This document shows, in pieces, positions 207 through 23,960 of a stretch of 45,022 nt of DNA. The position numbers and the translations under genes are program-made. Source of the stretch: Chthoniobacterales bacterium (GTDB lineage Bacteria > Verrucomicrobiota > Verrucomicrobiia > Chthoniobacterales > JAFAMB01); NCBI GenBank assembly GCA_035710445.1, contig DASTDH010000409.1, forward strand, positions 1 to 45,022, given 5' to 3'. Below the pieces are notes generated by a model, which was not told where the DNA came from, made no database searches, and saw only the letters and a program-made list of their open reading frames with translations. Within the stretch, counting starts at the first letter, position 1, and each line of letters starts with the position of its first letter.

Positions 207-502
207 ACTCCAAGGATCGCTTTGGAAAACGCTCGCGTCAATGAAAGGACGTTGTGCCTAGGGCCAGGCAGGTAAGCGCGGCTGTCGCGGCGGACCCTAT
301 GAAAGTATCCCCGCGAGACCAACTCATTCGCGGCCGACACCTCGCGACTACCGTTGGGTCGGCTCTAGGGAGAGTCTCCAGCCCGTCTTCACCGCTCCGG
401 AACCGGACCTCCTATCGCGAAACGTGATAGCTAATCATTAGAAGCGATATTACAAAGAGCTTTGAGGCGCCTATCTTGGAATCAGAAAGAGATAGAACTA
501 GA

Positions 503-715
503 ATGAAACGATTCAACTCGATCAAACATGCGAACCGGTTTGCCAGTGTTTTTTTGGCATTCAGCCTGTTTGGTTTTCTTTGGCCGCATCACGTGAACTC
601 AGCGGCCCGGCATCATGTGAACCTGATCAGGCCGAGCCAGGTTCAGGAAAGCGATTACGATTCCTGGTACACGCCACCTCGGAGTCCGGGATTTCACGAA
701 GATTTTGGTTCGTAA
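503..715 (+). CDS. small secreted peptide, copy 1 of an unnamed family with C-terminal RSPGF-x3-FGS tail
   Basis: ATG at 503 lies inside track ORF 476..715. It has a signal-peptide-like N-terminus (MKRFNSIKHANRFASVFLAFSLFGFLWPHHVNSAA). The C-terminus WYTPPRSPGFHEDFGS matches that of ORF 20082..20342, with third-position-only codon differences. Confidence 0.65.
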   Translation: MKRFNSIKHANRFASVFLAFSLFGFLWPHHVNSAARHHVNLIRPSQVQESDYDSWYTPPRSPGFHEDFGS

Positions 716-803
716 CGGAATAGGGATGAACTGCCTCCGGTAGCGCGGGGTATTCGCAGACCGAGTATCCTCGCTACCGGAAAAGTGGCGGACGCTCTTT
801 TCC

Positions 804-1742
804 TCAGCTACCGCCGGCGGTCAGCTTCGAACGATAATCGCTACAGAAACGGACAAAGGTGTCGCTGGGCTCGCCCAGGGCCCCGCTTGGCAGCACCCAG
901 TAAAACCCGCGCCGCACTGCCAGGTTCGCGATTTGCACCGTGCGCAGCTTGCCCAATGCTAGTTCCTCTTTCACGCTCCAACGGGAAAGAAATGCAAGCC
1001 CCAAGCAGTAGATGGCAGCGGTCTTGATAGCCTGGATGTCAGCGATCGTGTATTGATAAGCCAAGCGTTTGGTTTGGATCCCCAGCTTGCGCAGAGCCGC
1101 TTCAACCACCGCTCTCGTTCCCGAGCCGGCTTCACGCCAGATCAAAGGAATTTTGTAGAGATCCTGAACCGAAGTCACTGATGCGACCAGGCGTTGATAA
1201 TTGCGAAACGCCGGGTTGGTACCGGCCACCAAAATCACTTCGTCTTCGACAAACTGCTCGAGCCGGAGTCCCGCAGAACGCGGATTCCCTTCGACTAGGC
1301 CGAACGGATAGACTCCTTCTCGCACCGATTCGAGCACAACCTCGGTATTATCAACTCTGAGTTCCACGACGACTCCCGGATAGATCCGGCAGAATTCTGC
1401 CAGGAAAGCCGGGACGACCTGGGATGCGATGGTCAGACTGGCACCGAACCGCAGCCGTCCCGAGAGCTGCCGTTCGCGATGGAATGAAGCTTCGATACGG
1501 GCAAGGATTGCCTCGATCTCGGTCACGAGCGCCTGCAGCGTATGACCTTGGATCGTCAGTTTAACTCCGCGGCTTGAACGCGAAATCAGCGGTTTCCCTA
1601 TGATTTCCTCAAGCCGTCGTAGATGAGCGGTAACCGCCGGCTGCGACAAATGCAGCTGTTTGGCAGCCGTCGAAATCTTGCCGCATTGGGCCACGGCCAG
1701 AAACGATCGGAGAAGTCTGAGATCAAGGTCGTTTGGGTTCAT
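804..1742 (-). CDS. LysR-family transcriptional regulator
   Basis: Internal ATG at 1740-1742 gives MNPNDLDLRLLRSFLAVAQCGKISTAAKQLHLSQPAVTAHLRRLEE, a canonical LysR wHTH, followed by a roughly 200 aa substrate-binding domain. It is divergent from a YeiH-like gene, as yeiE-yeiH are in E. coli. Confidence 0.9.
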   Translation of the reverse strand: MNPNDLDLRLLRSFLAVAQCGKISTAAKQLHLSQPAVTAHLRRLEEIIGKPLISRSSRGVKLTIQGHTLQALVTEIEAILARIEASFHRERQLSGRLRFGASLTIASQVVPAFLAEFCRIYPGVVVELRVDNTEVVLESVREGVYPFGLVEGNPRSAGLRLEQFVEDEVILVAGTNPAFRNYQRLVASVTSVQDLYKIPLIWREAGSGTRAVVEAALRKLGIQTKRLAYQYTIADIQAIKTAAIYCLGLAFLSRWSVKEELALGKLRTVQIANLAVRRGFYWVLPSGALGEPSDTFVRFCSDYRSKLTAGGS

Positions 1743-1912
1743 TTCTTTTCGCAACCGGGACAGTGGCACTCCGGCAGTTCCGTCGTGCCGGAGCGACACG
1801 CCCGCGCCAGCCGGGCCTTCCCAACAATCATGATACCCCAATGTCACCAGCACTGATAGCGCATCCAGTCATTTGATTATTCAGATCTTCGTCATTGGCC
1901 TTTTTTCTTCTC

Positions 1913-2940
1913 ATGCAAATGCCTGATTTGAGGTTTTGGGGCGAGGTTCTGATCTCCGCCTTCCTTGCCGTACTCAGCGCTTTCATCGCCGCGGTTCCGC
2001 CGTTCGATCACTTCGGCGGCATCTCTCTCGCTCTGATCGCTGGGATGCTGGCCAAAGCATTGTTCTGGAAGCCTAGCTCTAGTGCGGGCGGACTGGTGTT
2101 TGCCGCCAAAACCTTGCTCCGAGTCGGTATAGTCTTGCTTGGGCTTCGATTGAATTTTGCGGTTCTCGTTCATTCCGGGATCGAGGTCGTTGTGTTCGAT
2201 CTTGTGATGATCATTTTGGGTATCGCTCTGATCATGCTTGTGTTGCGCCGGGCCGGATTCGAGCCGACGCTCGCCGCCTTAGCTGCCGTCGGCAGCTCGA
2301 TTTGCGGGGCGTCGGCCATCGCTGCGGCAGCCCCCGCGATCCGGGCGAACAAGGAAAGTTCCGCATTAGCAATTGTGGTCTGCACTCTGATCGGTACCTT
2401 TGCCACATTCTTGGTAATTCCGCTGCAGAGCATCGCTGGTCTGGCGCCCGCCAAGTACGGAATCCTGGCTGGAGCGACCCTGCATGAGGTCGCGCAGGTC
2501 GTGGCCGCAGTAACTCCGGTTCCTGACGCCTTCCAAACCGGAATGGCAGCAAAATTGTTGCGGGTGGTGTTTCTTGCGCCAGTCATTGCGGTATTGCCTT
2601 GGATCCTGCAAAGTCGATCCAGAGACGAGCCCAAAGCCATACGAATTCGGGATCAAAACCCGACTTCCTCCCGTGGTACGTCGGCGGATTTCTTCTGGCG
2701 GGCTTGGCGGTGACGCTCGCGGCTTACCTTCCGGCAGGGATACTTCGGTTGGTGAGCGCCGCGACGAATCAACTCGCCCTGCCGACGAATCTCCTCATCG
2801 GCACCTCCATGGCAGCCATTGGTCTTCAAGTCGACTTCACTCTCCTGCGTAAACATGGTCCGAAACTTATGCTGATCGCCGGCAGCGCGTGGCTACTCCT
2901 ATTCGTGGCGGTTTTTGCGCTTTGTTTGATCTGGAAATGA
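1913..2940 (+). pseudogene. YeiH/UPF0324-family membrane protein (putative sulfate-exporter family), split by a frameshift near 2640-2665
   Basis: ORF 1895..2713 carries GSSICGASAIAA and HEVAQVVAA motifs, as in E. coli YeiH. The expected continuation (PDFLPWYVGGFLL...MAAIGLQVDF...) is in ORF 2599..2940, in another frame. The combined length of about 345 aa matches the family. The switch lies around the run gatcaaaacccgac. Confidence 0.75.
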
Positions 2941-5662: not shown

Positions 5663-5968
5663 ATGGAGCAAGTACCGATGAGCCAATCATGCGCCGTGTG
5701 CGGCGGTCCGAAGTCGCGAACCTCTTCAGTCTGCCAGGCGTGCGAAACAGCCTTCAACTCAGGGAGTGCCGATCGAAGCAACCCCAAGCGGATCGATCTG
5801 AACCGTTACACCACGAAGATGTTCCCGTGGGAGCCAAGCGCGATTATACCGAGACTTGTTGCTCCCTCTCTGGTTTGGTCGGCGGTGTGTGTTGGACTAA
5901 TCTTAATTGTGGTCCTGCTTTCTTTGCTGCGCACTCCTCTTCCCTCTTGTTGGGAGATCTCTTCGTGA
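5663..5968 (+). CDS. hypothetical zinc-ribbon protein with C-terminal transmembrane helix
   Basis: ATG at 5663 gives MEQVPMSQSCAVCGG...VCQAC (CxxC-N11-CxxC), then a hydrophobic helix (LVWSAVCVGLILIVVLLSLL). It is divergent from the 5215..5415 zinc-ribbon ORF. Confidence 0.4.
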   Translation: MEQVPMSQSCAVCGGPKSRTSSVCQACETAFNSGSADRSNPKRIDLNRYTTKMFPWEPSAIIPRLVAPSLVWSAVCVGLILIVVLLSLLRTPLPSCWEISS

Positions 5969-6086
5969 CCTTCGCGCCAACACAAGGTGGCTAAGTGCGC
6001 CAGAGAAAGTCTCGGTGGCGCTGAACCATTTGCCATCGCGCCCTCCCCCTGCTCCTGTATTCCGTATTTCATTCCGCATTTCCACC

Positions 6087-7469
6087 ATGACTTCCCTTAC
6101 CTCACCTTTGCCCACCCAACCATTCATGTGGGGAACAGCCACTGCGAGTTATCAAATTGAGGGGGCCGTTTCCGAGGACGGACGAGCTCCTTCCATCTGG
6201 GATGTTTTTGCGCATACCCCAGGCAAAATTGAGCGGTCGGAAACGGGTGATATAGCGTGCGATCATTATCATCGCTACAAAGAGGATATTGCGCTGATGC
6301 GCGAACTCGGGGTACAAGCTTACCGTTTCTCGATTTCATGGCCGCGGGTCATCCCGGACGGCCGCGGCAAACCGAACGCCGCTGGCGTCGATTTTTATGA
6401 TCGCTTGGTCGACGAGCTTCTTGCTGCCGGCATCACCCCGTTTGCAACGTTGTTCCATTGGGATTTGCCACAAGCACTGCAAGAGCATGGCGGTTTTGCC
6501 AATCGCGATATCTGTGGCTGGTTCAGCGATTACGCAACGCGAATAGCGCCCCGTTTGGGCGATCGCGTAAACCACTGGATCATGCTGAACGAGCCGTCGG
6601 TCTATGCCTTTCTCGGCCACGCCTTGGGAACGTTTGCACCGGGCCTGGCCGATCGATCCGTTTTCCTGGCCGTGATCCACCACTTGAATCTGGCACAAGG
6701 CTCTGCCCTTGCCGCGCTGCGGTCGCTCGATTCCGCGTGGCAGCTTGGCACGACGCTGAATATTCACCCAGGCGTTCCGGCCGACCGTTCCGAGGATTCT
6801 ATCGTGATGACCGAGAGATATAACGATCTTTGGAACCGCTGCTTCCTGGGACCGCTGCTATCAGGCCGATATCCGGACGCAGTCGCATCAGAATTGCATC
6901 CCTTTATCCACGCGAGCGATCTGGATACTATTCGTCAGCCCTTGTCTTTTTTGGGTATCAATCATTACCTCCGTGCGTATATCCAGGCGGACGCCAACGA
7001 ACTGCTCGGATTTCGCCAGGTTTCGCCTCCAACCCATTTGCCAAGGACCAGTTATGACTGGGAAATCAATCCTCAGGTGTTTCGGGATGTGTTGCTCTGG
7101 CTGCATCAAGATTATGAGTGCCCTCCTATTTACATTACCGAGAATGGGGCATACTTCGAGGACACGCTATCTGCGGATGAAAAGGTCCACGATCCTCAAC
7201 GCATCGAGTTCCTTGAGAACTACATCCAGGCGATGCGGGAAGCCATCGATCAAGGAGTGGATATCCGCGGCTATTTCGTATGGTCTCTTCTGGACAATTT
7301 CGAGTGGGCTTCCGGCTATCGGCCGACCTTCGGACTCGTGAAGGTGGATAGCGAAAGTCAGAAACGGATCCCGAAAGATTCGTTTTATTGGTACCGAGAC
7401 TTGATCCAGCAAAATCGATCGATCACTTCTGCCCGGACCAATCAAGCCAGCGATGCAACCAAAGGATAA
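6087..7469 (+). CDS. GH1 beta-glucosidase
   Basis: ATG at 6087 gives MTSLTSPLPTQPFMWGTATASYQIEGA. The catalytic motifs are LNEP (acid/base) and ITENG (nucleophile). Length is 460 aa. Confidence 0.92.
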   Translation: MTSLTSPLPTQPFMWGTATASYQIEGAVSEDGRAPSIWDVFAHTPGKIERSETGDIACDHYHRYKEDIALMRELGVQAYRFSISWPRVIPDGRGKPNAAGVDFYDRLVDELLAAGITPFATLFHWDLPQALQEHGGFANRDICGWFSDYATRIAPRLGDRVNHWIMLNEPSVYAFLGHALGTFAPGLADRSVFLAVIHHLNLAQGSALAALRSLDSAWQLGTTLNIHPGVPADRSEDSIVMTERYNDLWNRCFLGPLLSGRYPDAVASELHPFIHASDLDTIRQPLSFLGINHYLRAYIQADANELLGFRQVSPPTHLPRTSYDWEINPQVFRDVLLWLHQDYECPPIYITENGAYFEDTLSADEKVHDPQRIEFLENYIQAMREAIDQGVDIRGYFVWSLLDNFEWASGYRPTFGLVKVDSESQKRIPKDSFYWYRDLIQQNRSITSARTNQASDATKG

Positions 7470-7472
7470 TAA

Positions 7473-8495
7473 ATGGATTATCGTAAGCTAGGACGCAGTG
7501 GCCTCAAGGTGTCGCCGCTTTGTTTGGGCACAATGATGTTCGGAGGTCAGACCGATGAGACGACTTCTACACGAATCGTCGCCCGCGCCCGCGCCGCTGG
7601 AATCAACTTTATCGATACGGCTGATGCCTACAACAACGGACGTTCCGAGGAAGTGGTGGGACGCGCCATCGCCCCGGAACGTTCCTGGTGGATTTTGGCA
7701 ACGAAGCTGGCGAACCCGACCGGTGATAGCCCCAATGATCGCGGTTTGTCTCGACGCCGGACTTTCAACGCGGTCGAGGCCAGTTTGCGTCGCCTTAGTA
7801 CCGACGTCATCGATATCCTTTATCTCCATAAAGAGGATCATTCGACCCCTCTCGACGAGACGGTAGGGGCGCTCGCCGACTTGCTCCGGCAGGGCAAGAT
7901 CCGCTATTTCGGAGTCTCAAACTTTCGAGGATGGCGTGTGGCCGACATCTGCCGACTGTGCGACTTGGCCGGAATCGATCGCCCGGTGGTGAGCCAACCA
8001 TACTACAATCTGCTGAACCGCATGCCCGAAGTCGAGCATTTGCCGGCGTGCGCTCATTACGGACTGGGCGTGGCGCCCTATAGCCCGCTTGCCCGCGGAG
8101 TTCTCACCGGCAAATATCCGCCGGACAGCACTCCCTCCGCAGATACCAGAGCTGGCCGCCAGGATAAACGGATCATGGAAACCGAATGGCGACGGGAAAG
8201 CCTGGAAATCGCCGGCCAATTGGCAAAACACGCGAGCTCACGTGGGATTACGCCGGGACAGTTTGCCTTTGCCTGGGTGCTTAACAACCGGATCGTTACC
8301 GCCCCGATTGCCGGCCCACGAACCGAACCGCAATGGGAGGATTATCTTGCCGCTCTCGATTATGATTTCACGCCCGAAGACGAAGCTCTAGTGGATCGGC
8401 TCGTAGTCCCCGGTCATGCCTCCACACCCAGCTACAATGATCCCATGTACCCGATCGAAGGACGCGTTGCGCTCAAAACTCAAAAGAACAATTGA
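7473..8495 (+). CDS. aldo/keto reductase (Tas/YajO/Kv-beta-like)
   Basis: The sequence reads MDYRKLGRSGLKVSPLCLGTMMFGG...INFIDTADAYNNGRSEE...LYLHKED...YFGVSNF. The gene starts 3 nt after the GH1 stop (TAA TAA ATG). Confidence 0.88.
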   Translation: MDYRKLGRSGLKVSPLCLGTMMFGGQTDETTSTRIVARARAAGINFIDTADAYNNGRSEEVVGRAIAPERSWWILATKLANPTGDSPNDRGLSRRRTFNAVEASLRRLSTDVIDILYLHKEDHSTPLDETVGALADLLRQGKIRYFGVSNFRGWRVADICRLCDLAGIDRPVVSQPYYNLLNRMPEVEHLPACAHYGLGVAPYSPLARGVLTGKYPPDSTPSADTRAGRQDKRIMETEWRRESLEIAGQLAKHASSRGITPGQFAFAWVLNNRIVTAPIAGPRTEPQWEDYLAALDYDFTPEDEALVDRLVVPGHASTPSYNDPMYPIEGRVALKTQKNN

Positions 8496-9492
8496 TGCTG
8501 CCAAACCTGTCCCAGCCGTCCTGGTGATGAAATTCTGAGGAGCGAAGAACAAAACTCGCTGCTATTCTGAAGCAATTCGAATAGAACAGCTCCACTCCGA
8601 ATATGATATCGGCCACCAAATAGTTCTTTGGCACGCTTCGGCTTGAGGCAAAACTGTTGCCATCCAAAAAAATATTTCGCGCAATTGCGCGTCCCTGCGC
8701 TCCCGCAAAAAAAGAAAAACCCAACCCGAGGTTTTTGGCTCTGGCCGCCTCGAAATAACCGGTACCAGAGTAAGCCGGACGAATGAGTTCTGGACCCCAA
8801 TTCGCCTTCAATCCTCGACCGAGGCGAAAAAGGCCGCCTGCTTCGGCATAGGTTAGCACATTACCGGCGGTGCCTCCGATATCCGGAATGAATTCGAAAC
8901 CAAGCTTGCCGGGGAGTTCAATGCCTAATCGCCATTTTCGTTCCCACGAAGCGTTGAATCCGAACTCATTTGCGAGTTGATGGCTCCAGCCTTTGGCTTT
9001 GCCGGTAGCATTAAATTCATGGAAATCATTCTGTGTCTGGCGTCCGAGCGCGTCCGAACCAACTACCCCGAACTGCAACTCGAATGAGTCGAGCCGGTGA
9101 TCGGCCGCGTTTTGAATGAAATCAAAACCACCGTAAAGCCAGCCGGCGTAAGGCCGATCGCGAGGATCCGGATTGTCGACGTGAATATTAGCAGGGGTAA
9201 AAAGGCTTTGGCCGAGCACGGTCCACTCCAGCCGGTCATCCAGGTCGGTCTCTCGGGTCGCGAAGAGGAAAAGATAGTTCCGTAATACTTTGATTGGCGC
9301 GTTGAAAAAGCTTTCGTCTGCCAACTGCGGCGTCACGTAAGCAATCTTGAGCCCCTGCGTATAATGTCTGTCGGTGTTAAAGAAAACATCGTTCTCTTCA
9401 ATTGCATCGAGACGACCGATGGAATCTGCAAAACCGCGGCCCGCTCCGAGCACCGAAAAGAACGTCAGGACGAAAAGAACACGAATGTTCAT
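8473..9492 (-). CDS. LpxR-like lipid A deacylase family (DUF2219) outer-membrane protein
   Basis: ATG at 9492 gives the signal peptide MNIRVLFVLTFFSVLGAGRGFA. Family-typical motifs are present: ENDVFFNTDRHYTQG, DRPYAGWLY, GW.HQL.NE, NIFLDGNSF and a C-terminal F. The 3' end overlaps the convergent AKR by 23 nt. Confidence 0.65.
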   Translation of the reverse strand: MNIRVLFVLTFFSVLGAGRGFADSIGRLDAIEENDVFFNTDRHYTQGLKIAYVTPQLADESFFNAPIKVLRNYLFLFATRETDLDDRLEWTVLGQSLFTPANIHVDNPDPRDRPYAGWLYGGFDFIQNAADHRLDSFELQFGVVGSDALGRQTQNDFHEFNATGKAKGWSHQLANEFGFNASWERKWRLGIELPGKLGFEFIPDIGGTAGNVLTYAEAGGLFRLGRGLKANWGPELIRPAYSGTGYFEAARAKNLGLGFSFFAGAQGRAIARNIFLDGNSFASSRSVPKNYLVADIIFGVELFYSNCFRIAASFVLRSSEFHHQDGWDRFGSINCSFEF

Positions 9493-9719
9493 GCTACGCT
9501 TCTCGGTTGGAAAATTGAGCGCCACCCCGCATCAGGTTACCATCCCTTGTTCGACTTCTTTGCCAGCAAACCACAAATCGAGATTAAGGCGCAAGCAAAA
9601 CGAGCCGATTGTTCCGTATGGATCAGAAAGACCGGCACATGTTATGATTTGCTATCAGTCGAGATTCTGGCCGATGCACTGGTTTGACCGTACCTGGTGC
9701 GCGGGAATTGCGGATGGGC

Positions 9720-9743
9720 GAGGTAGGGCGTGTCCGTCCCGGG
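9720..9743 (+). repeat. dispersed GC-rich repeat family R1, copy a (GAGGTAGGGCG-GTCCGTCCCGG core)
   Basis: The sequence gaggtagggcgtgtccgtcccggg matches the copies at 13909, 14090-14170 (reverse), 29406 and 44751. Confidence 0.7.
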
Positions 9744-9934
9744 TTCGATCGTAGTCTGATCCAGCCCTCAGTGAAACAATCGGAGGCAGTCACACGATCT
9801 TTGGTGACGCTGCAGCGAGTTCTAACCCGCTAGGCTAATCGGAATCCGCCGATCTGGGATAGACCGCCCGACCTGAATCAAACTGCAAACCTCTGAGGTG
9901 GCATACCGTAGGTCGATCATGCTAGCTTCTAGTT

Positions 9935-10963
9935 ATGGCGAGGCAAACGTTAGGACAGAAAAAGCACATTACCATCCATGACGTGGCAGCTCAGTCTGGG
10001 GTCTCTTATCAGACCGTCTCTCGGGTAATTAACAATATGCCCGATGTGGCTCCCAAAACTCGATTGCGCATTCTCAATGTGATGGAGGATCTGGGGTATC
10101 GGCCAAACATGACGGCGCGACATCTAGTAAGTCAGCGTTCGACCGTGATCGGTTTCGTCACATGGGCTACCAGCTTTTATGGTCCGGCCCAGATAATGAT
10201 TAACGTAGAGCGAGCGGCCAGAGAAACGGATTATACCTTAATGTTCGCCGGGATTCGAGACGCCACTATCGATCGGATTCGTCGAGCGGTTAACAAACTG
10301 TGCGCTCATCGGGTAGCCGGGATCCTGATGCATTTGCCGTTTGAGATGGACTTGCGTCCCCTGCGCGAAATGTGTGTGAACGTGCCGTTGGTGGCGGTGG
10401 ACTGTGACCTCGGCTTTGAAGCGCCTTCTGTCCACTTTCGTCAAGAACACGGAGCCTATCTCGCAACCAAATATTTGCTCGGCCTGGGACATTCGAAGGT
10501 CGCTTACCTCCGTGGACCGATGGTCTGGCGTGTCGCCCGGCTGCGCTATCAAGGCTGGTTGAAAGCGGTGAAGGAGGGCGGCCAACCACCCGGTCCTTGT
10601 GTCGACGGGAACTGGACTTCGCGAGGAGGATTTGATGCGACTCTCAAGTTGCTCAGAGAATACCAGGGAGAATTTTCGGCTCTAGCGGTCGCTAACGACC
10701 AAATGGCGCTGGGGGCTATTCGCGCGTTTGAAGAACGTGGTCTGCGTGTGCCGCAGGATATTTCCGTGGTCGGATTTGATAACCTTCCGGAAGCCGAGTT
10801 TTTTCGTCCGCCGCTTTCAACGATCAAGCACGATTTTGTTAGCATTGGCACATTAAGCATTCGCTGTCTGATGGATCAATTGCGCGGAAGCCGGGAGAGC
10901 GCGCAGGTCTATACGATCGAGCCAACTTTTGTCGAACGCCTGAGCGCGACCGGGCTAAAGTAG
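9935..10963 (+). CDS. LacI-family transcriptional regulator
   Basis: N-terminal HTH ITIHDVAAQSGVSYQTVSRVINN is followed by a periplasmic-binding-fold sugar sensor domain (VAVANDQMALGAIRA...VPQDISVVGFDN). Confidence 0.92.
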   Translation: MARQTLGQKKHITIHDVAAQSGVSYQTVSRVINNMPDVAPKTRLRILNVMEDLGYRPNMTARHLVSQRSTVIGFVTWATSFYGPAQIMINVERAARETDYTLMFAGIRDATIDRIRRAVNKLCAHRVAGILMHLPFEMDLRPLREMCVNVPLVAVDCDLGFEAPSVHFRQEHGAYLATKYLLGLGHSKVAYLRGPMVWRVARLRYQGWLKAVKEGGQPPGPCVDGNWTSRGGFDATLKLLREYQGEFSALAVANDQMALGAIRAFEERGLRVPQDISVVGFDNLPEAEFFRPPLSTIKHDFVSIGTLSIRCLMDQLRGSRESAQVYTIEPTFVERLSATGLK

Positions 10964-11023
10964 CACAACCGAGTGGCCGCAACCCGACTACTTTTCCTTT
11001 GACATTTCCGTCTATTATATTAT

Positions 11024-11043
11024 TTCCGTGAACGTTCTCGGAA
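11024..11043. promoter_or_regulatory. candidate LacI-type operator (20-bp palindrome TTCCGtGAACGTTCtCGGAA) upstream of the GH51 gene
   Basis: Nine of 10 base pairs are symmetric around a central AACGTT/CG. It lies about 85 nt upstream of ATG 11127. It is preceded by TTGACA (10999-11004) and an AT-rich TATTATATTAT stretch, and the LacI gene ends 60 nt upstream. Confidence 0.5.
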
Positions 11044-11126
11044 GCATTCGTATTCGTTTCCGAGCTCATCTTTACCCCCCAAGGAACGGAAACCCCGAGC
11101 ACAGCTCGGCATCACTGAAAGGATTC

Positions 11127-13751
11127 ATGCGAACACGTATTTCGCTCCCCTCCGCGCTACGGACTCATGTCCGCCCATTGTCGTTGCTCGCGCCTGCTTT
11201 CCTACTGCTGTCAACCGCTGCTGCTTTGCGCGCACAAACACCAACTCCGGCCGCTTACCTGACATTCGATGAAGGATCTGGCACAGTTGCCCACGATACT
11301 TCAGGTAACAATGACGACGCTACCCTGTTGGGCGGCGCTGGTTGGACCACCGGCTTGGTGGGACCAGGCGCACTCAATCTGACCGGCGCAGCCAGCGCCT
11401 ATGCCGACATCCCGCGAGACGTTGTCGATACCACCAAGAGTTTCACTGTCGCAGCATGGGTCAAGCTCAACAGCTTAGGCGGTTACCAGACATTCGTAAG
11501 TGAGGATTCCGGTTTCCAAGCCACGTTCTTCCTACAAAAGCGCGGCGACACCAACACGTTCACCTTCACCCAGCCGTTTGGCGCAGCCGGCGGACCCGGC
11601 GTTGCCGTTTACGCCGACTCAGGGATGACGCCTACGGTCGGCACCTGGTACCACCTAACCGGGGTCTATGATGCGATCCAACAATCCGCTTCGATCTATG
11701 TGAATGGCGTGCTGGCGGGACAGGTATACAGCGTATCTCCCAGCCCGGCAAACGGCCATACCGGAATCGGTCACGGCCAATATAATAACAGTTATGTGGA
11801 TTGGGTAAACGGTTCCATCGACGATGTACGCCTCTACCAGGCTGCACTTACCCCAGACCAGATCCTGACAATCGCTCGAATCGGCGATCCCTCGTTGCCG
11901 GGGCCGCAACCGGTTCAACCGGCTACACTGGACGTTGACGGCTTTCACCCGGGCGCCCACATCAATCCCAAGTTCTACGGATTGATGACCGAAGAGATCA
12001 ATCATTCGTACGATGGAGGTATCTACGGCGAGTTGGTCCAGAACCGGGTGTTCAAGGACGATCCGAGCACGCCAGTGCATTGGACACTCGTACAGGATAA
12101 CGGCGGAGCCGGCTCGATTACACTCGATACCACTCAGGCGGTCAGCAGTACAGCTCTGACCAACAGTCTCAGAGTTGACGTTAGCAAGGGTCAACGGGTC
12201 GGCGCGGCGAACGATGGATTCTGGGGCGTCCCGGTCAAGCCTTTGACAACCTATCACGCCTCTTTTTGGGCGAAGGCCGCCCCTGGCTTTACCGGTCCAT
12301 TAACGTTGGATATCGAGAGCAGCGACGGGTCGACTGTTTATGCTCGCGCCCAGGTGCCGCAGATCACCGAGGTCGGGACGAAATATCGGGTCGAATTCAG
12401 AAGTTCTCTGGTGCCGTCCAGCGCAAATACGCGCTACGTCATCTCAACCGGCAGCCCCGGAACTTTTTGGCTGACTCAAGTCTCACTGTTTCCGGCAACT
12501 TATCGAAATCGCCCCAACGGTAATCGAATCGATTTGATGGAGAAACTAGCGGCAATGAAGCCTGCCTTCCTGCGCCTGCCGGGAGGAAATTATCTTGAAG
12601 GCAACACGATCGACCAGCGATTCGAATGGAAAGACACGGTTGGCCCAATCGAACAAAGACCCGGCCATGAAAGTCCCTGGGGTTATCGCTCAGATGACGG
12701 CTTGGGTCTGCTTGAATTCGCGGAATGGTGCGAGGACCTACAGATGGAACCGGTGCTGGCGGTGTATGCTGGGTATTCGCTGAATGGCACTGTCGTTCCT
12801 GATTTGGCACCGTACGTGCAGGATGCCGTGGATGAAATCCAATATCTCACGGGTGCCCCCAGCACCACTTGGGGAGCGAAGCGCGCAGCGGACGGTCATC
12901 CGGCACCGTTCCCCCTCCACTACGTCGAAATCGGTAACGAAGATTTCTTTGACCGATCAGGGAGTTATGACGCTCGCTTTGCTGCGTTCTACGATGCGAT
13001 CAAGGCCGCTTACCCCAATCTTCAATTGATCGCGACGACCGGTGTGACCAGCCGGACCCCAGATATAATTGATGAGCACTACTATCGGGGACCAGGCTCG
13101 TTCGAAAACGACGTTCACCACTACGATAGTTACAAGCGGACCGGTCCGAAGATCTTTGTTGGCGAATGGGCTTCGCAAGAGGGATTCCCGACTCCGAACC
13201 TGCATGCTGCACTGGGTGACGCCGCCTGGTTGACCGGTCTGGAGCGCAACTCGGATATCGTAATTCTGGAATCCTATGCTCCACTGTTGGTTAACGTAAA
13301 TCCGGGCGCCAGCCAATGGCCGACGAACCTGATTGGCTATGATGCCTTGCAAAGCTACGGATCACCCTCGTACTACGTGCAGGTCATGTTCAGTAATTAC
13401 CATGGGGATGTGGTTTTACCGACGACGTTGACGTCGACCGGTGGATCGAAGGTATATGCGAGTGTCACTCGCGACAGTCGAGATGGGACGATCTATCTGA
13501 AAGTCGTCAACGCAGCCGCCGATCCGCAGCCGCTGCGCGTCAATCTCAATGGTGTCGGACAAGTTTCCTCGTCCGGTACAGTGGTGGTCCTTACCAGCAC
13601 CACTCCATCGGCCGGCAACAAACCTGGTGAAACCGACAAAGCGGTGCCGGTTAGCAGTAGAGTAGATGGTCTCGGTCGAGTTTTTAACTACAACTTTGCT
13701 CCGTTCTCGGTCACTGTTCTACAAATCGACTCCGGCGATGGACAACATTAA
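11127..13751 (+). CDS. secreted alpha-L-arabinofuranosidase, GH51 catalytic module with N-terminal LamG/concanavalin-like domain
   Basis: ATG at 11127 gives a signal peptide (MRTRISLPSALRTHVRPLSLLAPAFLLLSTAAALRAQ). The LamG_3-type segment reads LTFDEGSGT.AHDTSGN...FTVAAWVKL...GSIDDVRLYQAAL. The GH51 core reads NPKFYGLMTEEINHSYDGGIYGELVQNR, LRLPGGNYLEG, WGYRSDDGLGLLEF and YVEIGNEDF. Confidence 0.85.
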   Translation: MRTRISLPSALRTHVRPLSLLAPAFLLLSTAAALRAQTPTPAAYLTFDEGSGTVAHDTSGNNDDATLLGGAGWTTGLVGPGALNLTGAASAYADIPRDVVDTTKSFTVAAWVKLNSLGGYQTFVSEDSGFQATFFLQKRGDTNTFTFTQPFGAAGGPGVAVYADSGMTPTVGTWYHLTGVYDAIQQSASIYVNGVLAGQVYSVSPSPANGHTGIGHGQYNNSYVDWVNGSIDDVRLYQAALTPDQILTIARIGDPSLPGPQPVQPATLDVDGFHPGAHINPKFYGLMTEEINHSYDGGIYGELVQNRVFKDDPSTPVHWTLVQDNGGAGSITLDTTQAVSSTALTNSLRVDVSKGQRVGAANDGFWGVPVKPLTTYHASFWAKAAPGFTGPLTLDIESSDGSTVYARAQVPQITEVGTKYRVEFRSSLVPSSANTRYVISTGSPGTFWLTQVSLFPATYRNRPNGNRIDLMEKLAAMKPAFLRLPGGNYLEGNTIDQRFEWKDTVGPIEQRPGHESPWGYRSDDGLGLLEFAEWCEDLQMEPVLAVYAGYSLNGTVVPDLAPYVQDAVDEIQYLTGAPSTTWGAKRAADGHPAPFPLHYVEIGNEDFFDRSGSYDARFAAFYDAIKAAYPNLQLIATTGVTSRTPDIIDEHYYRGPGSFENDVHHYDSYKRTGPKIFVGEWASQEGFPTPNLHAALGDAAWLTGLERNSDIVILESYAPLLVNVNPGASQWPTNLIGYDALQSYGSPSYYVQVMFSNYHGDVVLPTTLTSTGGSKVYASVTRDSRDGTIYLKVVNAAADPQPLRVNLNGVGQVSSSGTVVVLTSTTPSAGNKPGETDKAVPVSSRVDGLGRVFNYNFAPFSVTVLQIDSGDGQH

Positions 13752-19926: not shown

Positions 19927-20081
19927 CCACTTGCTCTAGCTCGCCGATCGGGCCACGCCCACTGTCCGCTGTTAATCGGTATCAAGATCTAATAACTGTA
20001 CCTTATTAATCTCGTGCATCCGTTCTATTAGAAATTCCTCCTCTGATGTCCGACAGTTAAGCTAGAAAGGGACTAGGAAGA

Positions 20082-20342
20082 ATGAACAAGAGTTGGTTCT
20101 CAAAACTAACAAAAGGAGCGATAGTTCGAGCCGTGGTGCTGGCTTTGGTTATTAGCCCCACTCTTGGTTTGGCTAACACACCACATAAAACCAAGGGGAC
20201 CGTTCGGCATGTTGTGCGTCAACCGGCCAGCCAAGCTGTACAATTTCAAGGACAAAAATCGCAGACCGATTGGGACCACGATGAGGATGGCTTCTATCGG
20301 CCGACCCGAAGCCCTGGCTTCAACGACCTGTTTGGTTCCTAA
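20082..20342 (+). CDS. small secreted peptide, copy 2 of the RSPGF-x3-FGS tail family
   Basis: 86 aa. It has a signal-peptide-like N-terminus (MNKSWFSKLTKGAIVRAVVLALVISPTLGLA) and the C-terminus FYRPTRSPGFNDLFGS. The leader is similar to copy 1, and the gene is followed by a strong hairpin. Confidence 0.7.
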   Translation: MNKSWFSKLTKGAIVRAVVLALVISPTLGLANTPHKTKGTVRHVVRQPASQAVQFQGQKSQTDWDHDEDGFYRPTRSPGFNDLFGS

Positions 20343-20374
20343 TAATTGGTAATTTTCAATTAGGGTCGCACCGA

Positions 20375-20412
20375 CTCAGCGCCGTTAAACTAATCGGCGC
20401 TGAGTTTCGCTT
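20375..20412 (+). terminator. intrinsic terminator after peptide gene copy 2
   Basis: A perfect 10-bp stem, CTCAGCGCCG (20375-84) / CGGCGCTGAG (20395-404), encloses a 10-nt loop and is followed by TTTCGCTTG. Confidence 0.6.
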
Positions 20413-20501
20413 GTAAAGACAAGGTTCGGAGACACAGTCCCCTCTATCAAGCGATCAACGCCAAGACTTTCAGTGTTAACAACCGGTCAGGCAGCGTTTG
20501 C

Positions 20502-21485
20502 TCATGATTCTACATTCCGAATCGGTTGGACCTTACGACAAGTGCAAGGTGTAGCCGATTCCACTATTTTGTTGGCCCTCTCCATTTTCTTGTACAACGC
20601 TCCTTCTCTGAGCTTCGTCAGAAGAAAATTCACGGCTGGCGAATGTTCATCTCGACGGTAAGCGACAGCTAGTTCCGATACCCGCTGAATGTCCGCCAAG
20701 GGGCGAAATACCACCGATGGAACGTGCATATAGCGGAGCGACTCCGGCACGATCGCTACGCCTGATCCTCCGGCCACCAGGCCGATAATCGCAGTGAGTT
20801 TCTCGGCGGTCTGCGCCACCCGGAAGTCAAACCCTCCCTTTTGTGCAATTGCCTTTACGTGATGATCCAAAGCCGACTTACCATCCGGTCTCGCATACAA
20901 TACCAGCTGCTCGGCCTTTAGCTTGGCACACAGTACTTTCTTCTTTTTAGCCAGGGCATGCTCCCTGTTCAGTGCCACGAGGATTTTTTCCCGCATTACC
21001 GTGGTAACTACGATCTCAGGCGGGACGTCCTCAAGAGGCAAGCGGATAAAGCCCAGGTCAAGCTCCCCTTCGAACAACCGGCTCATTTGGTTAGAAGAAT
21101 CGCCTTCAGCAAATTCCAAATGAACTTCGGCAGCACACTTTCGAAACACCGATGCCAAGTTGGCCAGCAGTCCGCTGAATGGAACCGAATGCACGTAACC
21201 GATTCGGATCGTGCCGAGCTTGCCGCGGGCTACCTTCTGGGCAACGACCTTGGCTCGTTCAGCATGCTCGAGCGTTAGTTTCGCCTCTTCCAAGAAATAC
21301 TTCCCCGCTTCGGTCAATGCTACCGTGCGCTTCGTGCGCTCCAGCAAAAGGACGCCCAATTCTTCTTCCAAAGCCTTGATTTGTTGGCTCAATCCGGGCT
21401 GGGAAACATGGACGGATTCAGCCGCCTCCGCAAAATGCAGCCGTTCAGCGACCGCCACAAAATAGCGCAACTGGTGCAAATCCAT
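20502..21485 (-). CDS. LysR-family transcriptional regulator
   Basis: The sequence MDLHQLRYFVAVAERLHFAEAAESVHVSQPGLSQQIKALEEELG is a wHTH, followed by a LysR substrate-binding domain. Confidence 0.9.
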   Translation of the reverse strand: MDLHQLRYFVAVAERLHFAEAAESVHVSQPGLSQQIKALEEELGVLLLERTKRTVALTEAGKYFLEEAKLTLEHAERAKVVAQKVARGKLGTIRIGYVHSVPFSGLLANLASVFRKCAAEVHLEFAEGDSSNQMSRLFEGELDLGFIRLPLEDVPPEIVVTTVMREKILVALNREHALAKKKKVLCAKLKAEQLVLYARPDGKSALDHHVKAIAQKGGFDFRVAQTAEKLTAIIGLVAGGSGVAIVPESLRYMHVPSVVFRPLADIQRVSELAVAYRRDEHSPAVNFLLTKLREGALYKKMERANKIVESATPCTCRKVQPIRNVES

Positions 21486-21500: not shown

Positions 21501-22460
21501 CTAGATCAACCGCTTCGCTCGATTACCTCTCTCTTTGCCCTGATAACGACCTCCATTTACTCTTCCGCTCCGCGGCGCTATTTGCACAGCACGATTCAGT
21601 GTACGTACAAACTCTTCCAGCGCGAGTGACCGAAGGGTATCCCTTCGGGTAATAAACATAGTCTCCGATCGGGCGTCCTCCGGCGGTATCCGGTGAATCG
21701 CAACCTCTTTGCGGCGAACATATGGTTCAACTACTGACAGAGGCAGCATGGTGACACCCAGACCCGCGCCAACGCAGCCGATGATGCCGTCAAGTGTTCC
21801 AAATTCCAGCTGGTTGATTAAGGTAATTCCTCGCGCGCCAAGGAATCGCTCAAGACGTTGCCGGTACGAGCATCCTACTCGGAAAACAAAGAGCTTGTGA
21901 ATACTTCCCTCCTTTAGCGCCATTTCCAAAGACCGATGCTGCGGCGCGCTTACCAGCACGAGTTCTTCCACAAAGCTGAGAGTCGCTTGCAGGTCATCGT
22001 GTTCGATTGGTCCGGCGACGAAGGCGCCATCCAATCGGTATTCCAGAACCGACTGGATAAGATTTCTGGTGGTACCGGTCTCTACTGCAATATCGACGTT
22101 CCGGTGCGTCGGAGCGTATGCTTTGAGCAGCGCGGGCAAGCGCGCAGCCGCCGTGGTTTCCATCGATCCCAAGCGCAGGACCCCGTGTGGTTTTCCGTTA
22201 TTGGCAACGGTGTCCTTTGCCTTTTGCACGAGGGCTTCGGCCTGCTGAGCAAACGGCAGCAGATCGTGTCCGGCTCGCGTCAACGTTACTCCCTGATGAT
22301 GACGCTGGAAGAGCGAGACACCCAGTTCTCGCTCCAACATTCGTAAACGAGTCGTGACGTTCGACTGAACCGTGTTAAGGCGCTGAGCTGCCTTGGTAAT
22401 GTTCCCGTGCTGCGCGATGGTGGCGAAAAGATTCAGATCCGATAGCTCCATGACCATCAC
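21501..22460 (-). CDS. LysR-family transcriptional regulator, divergent from the MFS transporter
   Basis: The sequence MELSDLNLFATIAQHGNITKAAQRLNTVQSNVTTRLRMLERELG is a wHTH. The start could be any of the Met codons at 22460, 22457 or 22451. Confidence 0.9.
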   Translation of the reverse strand: MMVMELSDLNLFATIAQHGNITKAAQRLNTVQSNVTTRLRMLERELGVSLFQRHHQGVTLTRAGHDLLPFAQQAEALVQKAKDTVANNGKPHGVLRLGSMETTAAARLPALLKAYAPTHRNVDIAVETGTTRNLIQSVLEYRLDGAFVAGPIEHDDLQATLSFVEELVLVSAPQHRSLEMALKEGSIHKLFVFRVGCSYRQRLERFLGARGITLINQLEFGTLDGIIGCVGAGLGVTMLPLSVVEPYVRRKEVAIHRIPPEDARSETMFITRRDTLRSLALEEFVRTLNRAVQIAPRSGRVNGGRYQGKERGNRAKRLI

Positions 22461-22482: not shown

Positions 22483-22526
22483 AAACAATCATTTCTCAAG
22501 ATAGGCGAATCGCATCTATTCGGTTG

Positions 22527-23960
22527 ATGCTGAAACCGCTAACGATGCTAGGGCCGGATAACCCGAGGCGGACGACCGGCCAGCCGGCGCCGGACGCCCG
22601 GAGCCGCGCTCTTTTTGTTGTCTGTTTCGGGTTTTTCCTCGTGCTGCTCGATACTACTGCTCTGAACATCGCAACACCGGCACTCGGAAAAGAGTTCGGC
22701 AACGGGATCAGCGATCTTCAGTGGGTGATTAACAGTTACACGCTGGTATTCGCGAGTCTTTTGCTCACCGCCGGTGCAGTCGGCGACCGGACCGGCGTGA
22801 AACGATCTTATCAGATTGGTTTGGCCCTTTTCACCGTCACCTCCCTTTTCTCGGCGGTTGCCTCTTCCCTCTCTCTGCTGATTGCGGCTCGCGCGCTTCA
22901 GGGATTAGGCGCAGCTATCATGCTGCCGGCGTCCCTTGCCATCTTGTCTCATACTTTCCCGGATCCGGCGGAACGGAGCCAGGCGGTCACCACTTGGGCC
23001 AACACCGCTAGTCTTGGCTTTGCCGCCGGTCCCGTTCTCGGCGGCGTCCTCACAACTTATTTAGGCTGGCGCAGTATCTTTTGGTTAAACGTTCCAGTCG
23101 GTCTCATCGCGCTTTATCTGAATCATGTTTACATCCGCGAAACGAGGTTAAGCCGGCCGCGTCCGATCGATTGGAGCGGACAGTTATCGATCGGTCTTGC
23201 CCTCTTCGCGCTAACCTACGCTCTGATCGAAGTCGGTCGCCGGGCATGGGATAACCCTATCGTGCTCTGCGCACTTGGATGCGCGGTACTGTTGTTGTGT
23301 CTGTTTGTTGCTTTAGAGCGCCGAAGCAATCACCCAGTGCTCCCCGGTTTCCTCTTCGCACAACTGACCTTCTCCGCCTGTATCGTTGTCGGATTCGTCC
23401 TGAACTTCAGCATGTACGGCGTCCTGTTCATTGAATCTCTTTATCTGCAAAGCGCACGAGGAATGGACGCGTTCGCTACCGGGCTTACTATTACACCGTT
23501 TACACTCTTTCCCACTGTCGCCAGCCGCCTGCTTGGCCAACGGAATGGAATACCGTACTTACAGCCTCGCATTTCTCTCGGCTTGGCTCTGGCCGCAATC
23601 GGAACAGGCGTACTGGTGGTCTGTGCGTTGAGTACGGCCTTCTGGCCGATCCCCATTGGCCTTGGATTGATGGGGATCAGCATGGGGATAATCATGCCGG
23701 CCATGACAGCCGGCGTACTGATCTCGGCTGCGCCGGAACACTCTGGGCTCGCTTCAGGGCTACTTAATTCAATGCGTCAGGTCGGCGGTACTGTCGGTGT
23801 TGCGCTGCTGGGGACAACCATGCAGACGCTCGCTCCGGGCACCGGGCTAGCTTGCGCACTCGGATTCACCACCCTATTCCTTCTGGTTGCCGCCGGGCTG
23901 AGTCGCTGGGTATTTGCGGTAGGCCGAGATCCCAAACTTCTGCGGACAGGCCAAGCCTAA
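22527..23960 (+). CDS. MFS transporter, DHA2 (EmrB/QacA-like, 14-TMS) family
   Basis: The sequence LDTTALNIATPALGKEF...LQWVINSYTLVFASLLLTAGAVGDRTGVKR is the typical DHA2 motif region. Length is about 477 aa with many hydrophobic helices. The start could be 22524 (TTG), 22527 or 22545. Confidence 0.88.
   Translation: MLKPLTMLGPDNPRRTTGQPAPDARSRALFVVCFGFFLVLLDTTALNIATPALGKEFGNGISDLQWVINSYTLVFASLLLTAGAVGDRTGVKRSYQIGLALFTVTSLFSAVASSLSLLIAARALQGLGAAIMLPASLAILSHTFPDPAERSQAVTTWANTASLGFAAGPVLGGVLTTYLGWRSIFWLNVPVGLIALYLNHVYIRETRLSRPRPIDWSGQLSIGLALFALTYALIEVGRRAWDNPIVLCALGCAVLLLCLFVALERRSNHPVLPGFLFAQLTFSACIVVGFVLNFSMYGVLFIESLYLQSARGMDAFATGLTITPFTLFPTVASRLLGQRNGIPYLQPRISLGLALAAIGTGVLVVCALSTAFWPIPIGLGLMGISMGIIMPAMTAGVLISAAPEHSGLASGLLNSMRQVGGTVGVALLGTTMQTLAPGTGLACALGFTTLFLLVAAGLSRWVFAVGRDPKLLRTGQA

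Follow-up and report, generated by a model that had tools for sequence, protein, structure and literature searches.

Lineage-specific small exported proteins and lipoproteins, as known from surveys of small open reading frames (ORFs), are shorter than 100 aa, carry a signal peptide or a lipobox, are devoid of domains, occur over a narrow taxonomic range and are annotated as 'hypothetical'. All of this holds for the products of two small genes, VFO40_16690 (copy 1) and VFO40_16770 (copy 2), located in a stretch of 45,022 nucleotides (the window) that constitutes contig DASTDH010000409.1 of a Chthoniobacterales bacterium (assembly GCA_035710445.1). The family to which these genes belong differs from the proteins of such surveys by a single invariant C-terminal tail set behind five or more distinct export segments, and by the presence of several paralogues per genome; the sharing of one tail among so many segments and paralogues indicates that the tail is a discrete functional module. 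Outer-membrane lipoproteins of the LpoB type combine a lipid anchor, a long disordered linker and a functional end, as does the lipoprotein branch of the family (type C, described below), and the YxF-COOH peptides of outer-membrane proteins are read by the PDZ domain of DegS, the family motif likewise lying at a fixed distance from the carboxyl end. The family differs from both systems in possessing neither a globular domain nor sequence similarity to them, and in ending in G-S rather than in an aromatic or aliphatic residue. Judged by architecture only, its closest functional likeness is to envelope proteins whose action depends on a disordered tether or on a C-terminal peptide.

Both ORFs are genuine genes under selection at the protein level. 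As the initial annotation had proposed, they encode 70 aa ending in WYTPPRSPGFHEDFGS and 86 aa ending in FYRPTRSPGFNDLFGS (full translations MKRFNSIKHANRFASVFLAFSLFGFLWPHHVNSAARHHVNLIRPSQVQESDYDSWYTPPRSPGFHEDFGS and MNKSWFSKLTKGAIVRAVVLALVISPTLGLANTPHKTKGTVRHVVRQPASQAVQFQGQKSQTDWDHDEDGFYRPTRSPGFNDLFGS, respectively), and pairwise BLASTP of the two products gave E = 5e-8, a similarity that is therefore not due to chance. No ORF of at least 80 aa overlapped either copy in any frame, and a six-frame motif scan of the window returned copies 1 and 2 but no third copy. Selection was evaluated from codon alignments with orthologues recovered as DNA (loci L001, L005 and L011 for copy 1; L008, L013, L014, L016 and L018 for copy 2). 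Whole-gene ratios of non-synonymous to synonymous substitution (dN/dS) ranged from 0.11 to 0.39, with synonymous sites near saturation; copy 1 presented values of 0.11–0.22 against L001 and L005, the L011 pair being synonymous-saturated, and copy 2 values of 0.20–0.33 against its five orthologues. Within the 16-codon tail, copy 1 and L011 exhibited 0 non-synonymous differences (37.3 sites) and 9 synonymous ones (10.7 sites), and 0–2 non-synonymous versus 6–9 synonymous differences were found across the copy 1 orthologues. A constraint on the protein rather than on the DNA had been claimed earlier from the RSPGF codons of the two copies (cgg agt ccg gga ttt versus cga agc cct ggc ttc), which indeed differ only at third positions; the low dN/dS values bear this out and extend it from two paralogues to many orthologues. 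The shortness of the ORFs and their lack of family annotation would suit ORFs that arose by chance, or else a non-coding element conserved as DNA or RNA. Against this, the peptide is conserved despite near-saturated synonymous sites, by which we count this explanation as already refuted, the frame and stop position are intact in hundreds of homologues, and no Rfam match was obtained anywhere in the window, so that its probability is considered negligible. Copies 1 and 2 are presumably both transcribed and translated.

The sole part conserved in all branches of the family was found to be a peptide of 16–22 residues at the C-terminus, with the motif D-x-[WF]-Y-x-P-[PT]-R-S-P-G-F-x-[DE]-x-F-G-S-COOH. 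In canonical tails (n = 114) the conserved positions were occupied as follows: Y 113, P 109, R 106, S 114, P 114, G 98, F 100, G 107 and S 109. The invariant S-P was followed by exactly 8 or 9 residues, forming an acidic and hydrophilic end, in 203 of the 212 distinct sequences, and about 190 of these 212 ended in [FTL]G[SG]. The tail is taken to be the functional unit, and these counts demonstrate its anchoring to the C-terminus; it contains no Cys and is not Ser/Thr-rich. A short Pro-Gly-Phe motif near the C-terminus of exported proteins is also characteristic of the PGF-CTERM and PEP-CTERM sorting signals. In the family, however, P-G-F is followed by 6–7 hydrophilic residues, with neither a transmembrane helix nor a basic end, and the tail is never found on large cargo; the missing helix after the motif sets it apart from those signals, and its confinement to tiny proteins indicates that it is not a general sorting tag.

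Plant CEP precursors resemble the family in combining a signal peptide, a variable region and a Pro-rich C-terminal peptide of about 15 residues, and the F-Y-R-P-T...S-P-G of copy 2 can be set beside AtCEP1, DFRPTNPGNSPGVGH (PMC8763272); the comparison employed this sequence from the literature, other CEP sequences and the consensus [DA]F[RQ]PTxPGxSPG[VI]GH. This common design, in which a small precursor bears a signal peptide and, at its C-terminus, a short Pro-rich domain, and the likeness of copy 2 to AtCEP1 are what favour the idea that the tail mimics the plant hormone and that soil Verrucomicrobia release a CEP-like peptide acting on roots. Nevertheless, local alignments reached only z = 0.9–2.7 against composition-matched shuffles, 2–18% of which equalled them, the spacing and the terminus differ (no C-terminal GH), and copy 2 comes closer to CEP than does the family consensus, WYxPPRSPGF. 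Moreover, the family is bacterial, includes a lipoprotein branch and lacks a route across the outer membrane. Since the resemblance was no better than that of shuffled controls, mimicry was rated as a very remote prospect.

The searches yielded 30 homologues for copy 1, at 47–99% identity, and 13 for copy 2, all of them unnamed or 'hypothetical'. A 37-sequence profile run against 1.84 billion representative proteins retrieved 97 clusters at 50% identity, and a profile built from lipoprotein-type members 810 clusters at 90% identity; scans placed nine loci in GTDB genomes and 80 in JGI metagenomes. Members are 65–100 aa long. Family matches longer than about 120 aa appear to result from start codons called too far upstream, and no genuine large protein was present among the profile matches, save for one spurious match to EGF repeats. 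All taxonomically labelled matches were assigned to Chthoniobacterales, Verrucomicrobiae or Verrucomicrobiota and were of soil origin, and none of the nine genome matches came from a cultured isolate. Where the initial annotation knew two copies and recognised no known family, many further homologues keep the tail, and no characterised family was matched in Pfam, NCBIfam, PDB sequences or Rfam: Pfam and NCBIfam contained no family for the two window proteins or for six relatives of other types (Pfam E <= 10), and a family-profile search of PDB sequences returned noise only, with E values of 0.76 and above. A literature search for tail strings gave nothing relevant. The JGI label YceK (DUF1375) of P0179, a type C relative, was rejected, since P0179 and other proteins of type C matched nothing but noise in Pfam at E <= 10.

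At least five N-terminal types, A–E, carry the tail (Table 1). Types A, B and C were found together on one 5.04-Mb contig (CAWIPH010000002.1), and a second metagenome-assembled genome contained one type A and two type C genes. These data define a genuine, previously undescribed family of small exported proteins, present as multiple paralogues and so far confined to Chthoniobacterales (Verrucomicrobiota). Sister proteins of type A, with the N-terminal segment SFASVFLAFSLFGFLFPH..HQVNL and an acidic patch, possess other C-termini, P0079, P0087, P0088 and P0093 ending in ...YEWFY or ...YQWFY and P0082, P0085 and P0086 in ...HPGQPYNQGF..., which suggests a wider superfamily with exchangeable tails. 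In type C genes (e.g., L021 7986..8291, L015 15377..15667 and L020 8001..8294), the n-region was unusually long, at about 35 residues, and included a conserved Cys (...D[HR]C[FS]G.F...). These genes also have in common a conserved 5' region, GGAATAAGGA...GAAAGAGGGTAGTTAACTATGGAGTTATTCAATG, within which an ATG lies out of frame, 13 nt before the annotated start.

The signal-peptide-like features claimed for the two window proteins were all recovered: a basic n-region (net charge over the first 12 residues of +4 in copy 1 and +3 in copy 2), a hydrophobic core (Kyte–Doolittle maximum over an 11-residue window of 2.49 and 2.95, respectively), the segments VNSAA and GLANT, the acidic patches SDYDS and DWDHDEDG, and the R-H-x-V motif, as RHHV in copy 1 and RHVV in copy 2. 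Cleavage sites were placed by eye from the −3/−1 rule, to which the c-regions S-A-A, A-N-S and G-L-A conform on inspection; cleavage would occur after S-A-A in copy 1 and after G-L-A or A-N-T in copy 2. The predicted mature parts are strongly hydrophilic, with mean Kyte–Doolittle values of −1.26 (copy 1) and −1.20 (copy 2). The linker comprises 20–40 hydrophilic residues, basic at the start and acidic at the end, and is the least conserved part of type A (top-residue frequency of 0.56, compared with 0.83 for the hydrophobic segment and 0.82 for the tail). An AlphaFold2 model from a family alignment of 37 sequences contained a single helix, residues 4–26, coinciding with the signal segment (mean predicted local distance difference test score, pLDDT, of 59.6); the remainder looks disordered. 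A lipobox, (L/V)(A/S/T)(G/A)C-SSTG, precedes the same tail in 114 of the 212 distinct sequences, with G-C-S-S invariant in type C, the last search having been made with the lipoprotein-type profile. The products of copies 1 and 2 contain no Cys and hence no lipobox of the form [LVI][ASTVI][GAS]C. The N-terminal segments behave as export signals, a reading that draws its main support from the occurrence of the tail behind unrelated hydrophobic segments and behind a canonical lipobox. The interpretation in the initial annotation, that of a family of small secreted peptides, is supported, 'secreted' being readable only as exported across the inner membrane.

Each branch was found to possess its own conserved upstream elements. 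The palindrome upstream of copy 1 is kept in four orthologues from three different neighbourhoods, the L005 version being a perfect 21-bp palindrome, and the core of the copy 2 palindrome is invariant in five orthologues and has no other match in the window. These branch-specific palindromes accompany the small gene into differing neighbourhoods. Stable hairpins follow both stop codons: the fold of 716..800 reached −41.1 kcal/mol (z = −4.57) and that of 20343..20420 −27.8 kcal/mol (z = −4.34), with 0 of 200 shuffles as stable in either case. Both were found by folding, a simple terminator scan having missed them. Given these hairpins and the upstream elements proper to each branch, the small genes look monocistronic. 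A sigma-70 promoter match at copy 1 was left unused because its −10 element overlaps the ATG, which is implausible.

A convergent LysR gene follows both window copies. The copy 1 arrangement is syntenic in L005–L007 and L030, while the tandem LysR genes and the transporter of the major facilitator superfamily (MFS) beyond copy 2 recur in L008, L010, L013, L016, L018 and L032, in degraded form in L014, and lie downstream of every type B gene, the upstream neighbours varying. A LysR hidden Markov model detected 27 LysR ORFs in 650 kb of fetched DNA, almost all of them neighbours of the small genes; these reduce to two robust independent cases, namely the type A and type B orthologue groups, and two weak ones. 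The LysR regulators of copies 1 and 2 are not close paralogues. In NCBIfam, the copy 1 regulator came closest to the selenium-metabolism LysR and to YeiE, without reaching the cut-off of either (152 versus 480 bits for YeiE), and the adjacent YeiH-like protein was likewise below cut-off. A box, TCA-N7-TGATAGC, was found both upstream of copy 1 and in the divergent region between the LysR and YeiH-like genes, with 0–2 mismatches in the window and exactly in L005 (17.7 kb), where it occurs at these two places only (7446..7468 at the small gene and 9230..9248, CATCAGCAAACCTGATAGC, in the divergent region). Since the box is common to both regions, co-regulation of copy 1 with the YeiH-like exporter is plausible, and the adjacent YeiE-like LysR protein is a candidate regulator that may control copy 1. 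In Salmonella, YeiE and YeiH form a sulfite-stress module (PMC12880088); the window pair is similarly divergent, with both proteins below the NCBIfam cut-offs.

ORFs were called around 94 family genes (from the window and 103 fetched loci), and two neighbours per side were clustered, the representatives being annotated. Each orthologue group keeps its own synteny, with about nine recurring neighbourhoods: for type A, NmrA and LysR, or GyrI-like, DUF305 and beta-propeller, or O-methyltransferase and a 131-aa hypothetical protein; for type B, two LysR genes and an MFS transporter; for type C, DoxX and NDH-2-like, or MFS_3, or Metallophos-DUF2231-cytochrome c. Among the two nearest genes per side at the 94 loci, none was shared across the branches, and no peptide-maturation enzyme, peptidase-containing transporter or immunity gene was detected. 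Several neighbours (DUF305, ferritin-like, rubrerythrin, DoxX, NDH-2-like, YCII with an ECF sigma factor, and aldo-keto reductases), as well as the YeiE/YeiH-like pair adjoining copy 1, which recalls sulfite stress (PMC12880088), would suit periplasmic stress protectants or metal-binding peptides, that is, His/Asp-rich disordered chaperones induced with detoxification genes. The four to five His residues of type A (PHHxNSxxRHHVN) and the DHDEDG patch of type B, which is DxDxDG-like, point the same way. However, types C and D do not conserve the His residues, no metal ligand is conserved within the invariant tail, whose His/Asn/Asp position varies freely, and the fixing of the motif to the C-terminus is left unexplained, which makes such a role quite improbable.

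The reading we put forward, tentatively and with a probability of roughly 0.45, is that the family consists of exported disordered peptides whose C-terminal motif docks onto a partner in the cell envelope, either free or tethered. Each precursor would be composed of an N-terminal export signal (of the signal-peptidase-I type in the window copies and a lipoprotein signal in the largest branch), a disordered linker and the near-invariant tail. After Sec export the peptide would remain in the envelope, where the tail, as its working part, would serve as a short linear motif for docking; a conserved partner in the periplasm or outer membrane would recognise it together with its free carboxyl terminus. 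The choice of N-terminal carrier would set only the presentation, free in the periplasm for types A, B, D and E or lipid-tethered to a membrane for type C, and the supply of ligand would depend on conditions through the promoter, operator and terminator proper to each paralogue, copy 1 probably belonging to the regulon of the neighbouring YeiE-like LysR protein. In this scheme, we infer that the signal peptide is cleaved, that a binding partner exists and that LysR exerts control, as well as the place where the product finally resides. It was preferred as the simplest because the C-terminal peptide is conserved, the export signals are interchangeable, the spacer is variable, the copies are independently regulated, dedicated neighbours are absent and the tail is never found on large proteins. 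The tail might even be the ligand of a so-far unrecognised, lineage-specific envelope system with a dedicated receptor, in which soluble forms would compete with or replace the tethered type C, each soluble form under its own stress-responsive regulator (e.g., the YeiE-like LysR beside copy 1); this extension is regarded as improbable.

Several observations weigh against the docking of an exported tail as set out above. No binding partner was identified, and no neighbour gene shared across the branches points to one. PDZ-type domains, which recognise C-termini, do not typically bind a terminal serine. The link to LysR rests on short boxes with mismatches in the window, and their TATCAC/GTGATA half-sites, which also make up the phage lambda operator consensus, would be compatible with further helix-turn-helix regulators, such as a cI/XRE-type repressor. 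In addition, no box was found linking copy 2 to the region between its LysR and MFS genes, so that a functional link between copy 2 and these LysR genes is not supported. The remaining two points, the conservation of the type A hydrophobic segment and the other endings of the sister proteins, each favour a different explanation.

The hydrophobic segment of type A is conserved as strongly as the tail (0.83 versus 0.82), a pattern seldom seen in signal peptides that are cleaved off and in keeping with an anchor that stays in the membrane. Small proteins such as MgrB and AcrZ are known to modulate a transporter or a sensor, and the family could comprise regulators of this kind, with the segment uncleaved, an N-in/C-out orientation in the inner membrane and the tail contacting the periplasmic face of a target transporter or sensor. 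Besides the conservation of the segment, its being the only confidently helical part of the model and the frequency of membrane-protein neighbours (MFS transporters, YeiH-like, DoxX and bestrophin-like) agree with such anchoring. By contrast, the same tail stands behind quite different hydrophobic segments, the lipobox branch implies cleavage and lipidation, and the c-regions obey the −3/−1 rule; an uncleaved anchor is accordingly given a low probability.

The sister proteins that share the type A N-terminus and end otherwise (...VYEWFY) display a conserved leader with a variable end, as in families of processed peptides. The family might thus encode precursors of a processed and released peptide, whether a signal, a bacteriocin-like product or a ribosomally synthesised and post-translationally modified peptide (RiPP) with its enzymes encoded elsewhere; a protease would cleave within the acidic patch or downstream of it to yield the active product, namely the 16–22-residue tail, which might carry modifications at Tyr, Pro or Ser. 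The small size of the precursor, the restriction of its strongly conserved mature segment to the extreme C-terminus, the likeness of the disordered linker to a pro-region, the other aromatic ends of the sister proteins (YEWFY, HPGQPYNQGF...) and the scattering of the genes in several copies per genome are all consistent with processing. Bufferins, which are RiPP precursors with a Sec signal peptide encoded beside MNIO (DUF692) enzymes, offer a comparison: the family is alike in its small precursor, its predicted signal peptide and its conserved C-terminal region, whereas bufferins belong to DUF2282 or BUF_6/12Cys and the mature part of the family has no conserved Cys and no Pfam match. No MNIO/DUF692 or DUF2063 neighbour was present at any family locus examined, and with neither conserved Cys nor an MNIO neighbour, identity with bufferins was ruled out. 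A released peptide is also opposed by the absence of radical-SAM, MNIO, cyclase, peptidase-transporter and immunity genes beside any neighbourhood examined, and by a tail composition without Cys and not rich in Ser/Thr. Across the branches the putative core is constant and the leader variable, the reverse of the usual RiPP logic, and the lipoproteins, which made up over half of the sequences recovered (the last search having used a lipoprotein profile), argue for retention in the envelope. On balance, the main rival, a processed and released product, is judged unlikely, and an envelope-retained docking peptide is preferred.

Table 1. Coordinates of the two small genes, their parts and associated elements in the window, and the N-terminal types of the family.
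Feature	Coordinates	Strand	Details
Copy 1 gene (type A)	503..715	+	70 aa plus stop; VFO40_16690 / HET9376613.1; GenBank 'hypothetical protein'
Copy 1 predicted Sec signal peptide	503..607	+	n-region MKRFNSIKHANR, h-region FASVFLAFSLFGFLW, c-region PHHVNSAA
Copy 1 conserved tail WYTPPRSPGFHEDFGS	665..712	+	Position frequencies; 0 non-synonymous differences versus L011
Conserved palindrome upstream of copy 1, TATCGCGAAACGTGATAGC	413..431	+	T-N11-A dyad; TATCAC-N5-GTGATA at 413..429
5' untranslated region (UTR) / Shine-Dalgarno-like block TCAGAAAGAGATAGAA	482..497	+	6 nt before ATG; near-invariant in all type A upstream regions
Hairpin after copy 1 stop	736..781	+	Between convergent genes; probable (bidirectional) terminator
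LysR-type regulator convergent with copy 1	804..1853	-	Pfam HTH_1 and LysR_substrate; probable true start near 1742
Related box TGTCACCAGCACTGATAGC	1842..1860	+	Divergent region between LysR and YeiH-like genes
YeiH-family gene, divergent from copy 1 LysR	1895..2713	+	PF03601 / TIGR00698
Palindrome upstream of copy 2, TAATAACTGTACCTTATTA	19990..20008	+	T-N11-A dyad, TAATAAC-N5-CTTATTA
Second element upstream of copy 2, CGTTCTATTAGAA	20021..20033	+	Contains palindrome TTCTA-T-TAGAA; near-invariant in five orthologues
Copy 2 gene (type B)	20082..20342	+	86 aa plus stop; VFO40_16770 / HET9376629.1; GenBank 'hypothetical protein'
Copy 2 predicted Sec signal peptide MNKSWFSKLTKGAIVRAVVLALVISPTLGLANT	20082..20180	+	Charge, hydrophobicity
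Copy 2 conserved tail FYRPTRSPGFNDLFGS	20292..20339	+	Acidic patch DWDHDEDG just before
Terminator-like hairpin after copy 2	20373..20406	+	12-bp stem, then UUUCGCUUGU
Two tandem LysR genes convergent with copy 2	20502..21485, 21501..22460	-	Pfam
Divergent MFS transporter gene	22524..23960		After the tandem LysR genes of copy 2; Pfam
Type A (copy 1) N-terminus			...SFASVLLAFSLFGFLWPHHANSA...
Type B (copy 2) N-terminus			...SKLT..AVVLALVISPTLGLANT...
Type C N-terminus			Long n-region, then LLAVALGATVVLATG-C-SSTG; invariant lipobox; largest branch
Type D N-terminus			MKSNLFSKC...LLALASTSNS...
Type E N-terminus			MSKIEFYRSLMAVAIAATLWSVPA...

Some neighbouring genes were recorded in their own right. 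In a type C group (L082 772..3766; L078, L098 and L100), the small gene lies between DoxX and NDH-2-like pyridine-nucleotide-disulphide oxidoreductase genes on the same strand, and this set may form an operon. A Metallophos phosphoesterase gene followed by ORFs of about 142 and 126 aa was observed at L020 8414..11154 (type C) and L017 6276..8374 (type D); the two ORFs encode DUF2231 and cytochrome c, respectively, in L020, their L017 counterparts being matched by size only. A conserved hypothetical ORF of about 131 aa near type A genes (L041 5021..5416, L011 8514..8930 and nine further loci) occurs in two different arrangements, has no Pfam match and contains the block FL.FFRGF.EEDARALLSAYG..FEVD. 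Elsewhere in the window (5907..13751; 8473..9525), ordinary chromosomal genes were found, including those for a GH1 glycosidase, an aldo-keto reductase, a LacI regulator and a 907-aa arabinofuranosidase-like protein, together with a gene for LpxR, a lipid A deacylase of the outer membrane, the presence of which is consistent with a diderm, periplasm-containing cell.

To our knowledge, Chthoniobacterales are among the most abundant bacteria of soil, and their biology is almost unknown. The family described here comprises hundreds of clusters, is present in several copies per genome and is under strong purifying selection, and it carries no annotation. It is well defined and abundant in soil metagenomes, yet it is one among many uncharacterised families of small proteins and has so far offered no pointer to a new kind of system. 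Its simple design, namely an export signal, a disordered spacer and an invariant peptide, makes it tractable, and a synthetic 22-mer could be used to fish for a partner. If the tail is not a docking module, the family would be one more conserved family of small proteins, defined well enough for a family model. Should the tail prove to be a docking or signalling module, displayed both free and lipid-anchored, it would represent a new type of short linear motif in bacterial envelope biology and, if soluble and tethered forms do act as a ligand switch, a tunable peptide-ligand switch in the envelope of abundant, mostly uncultured soil bacteria.

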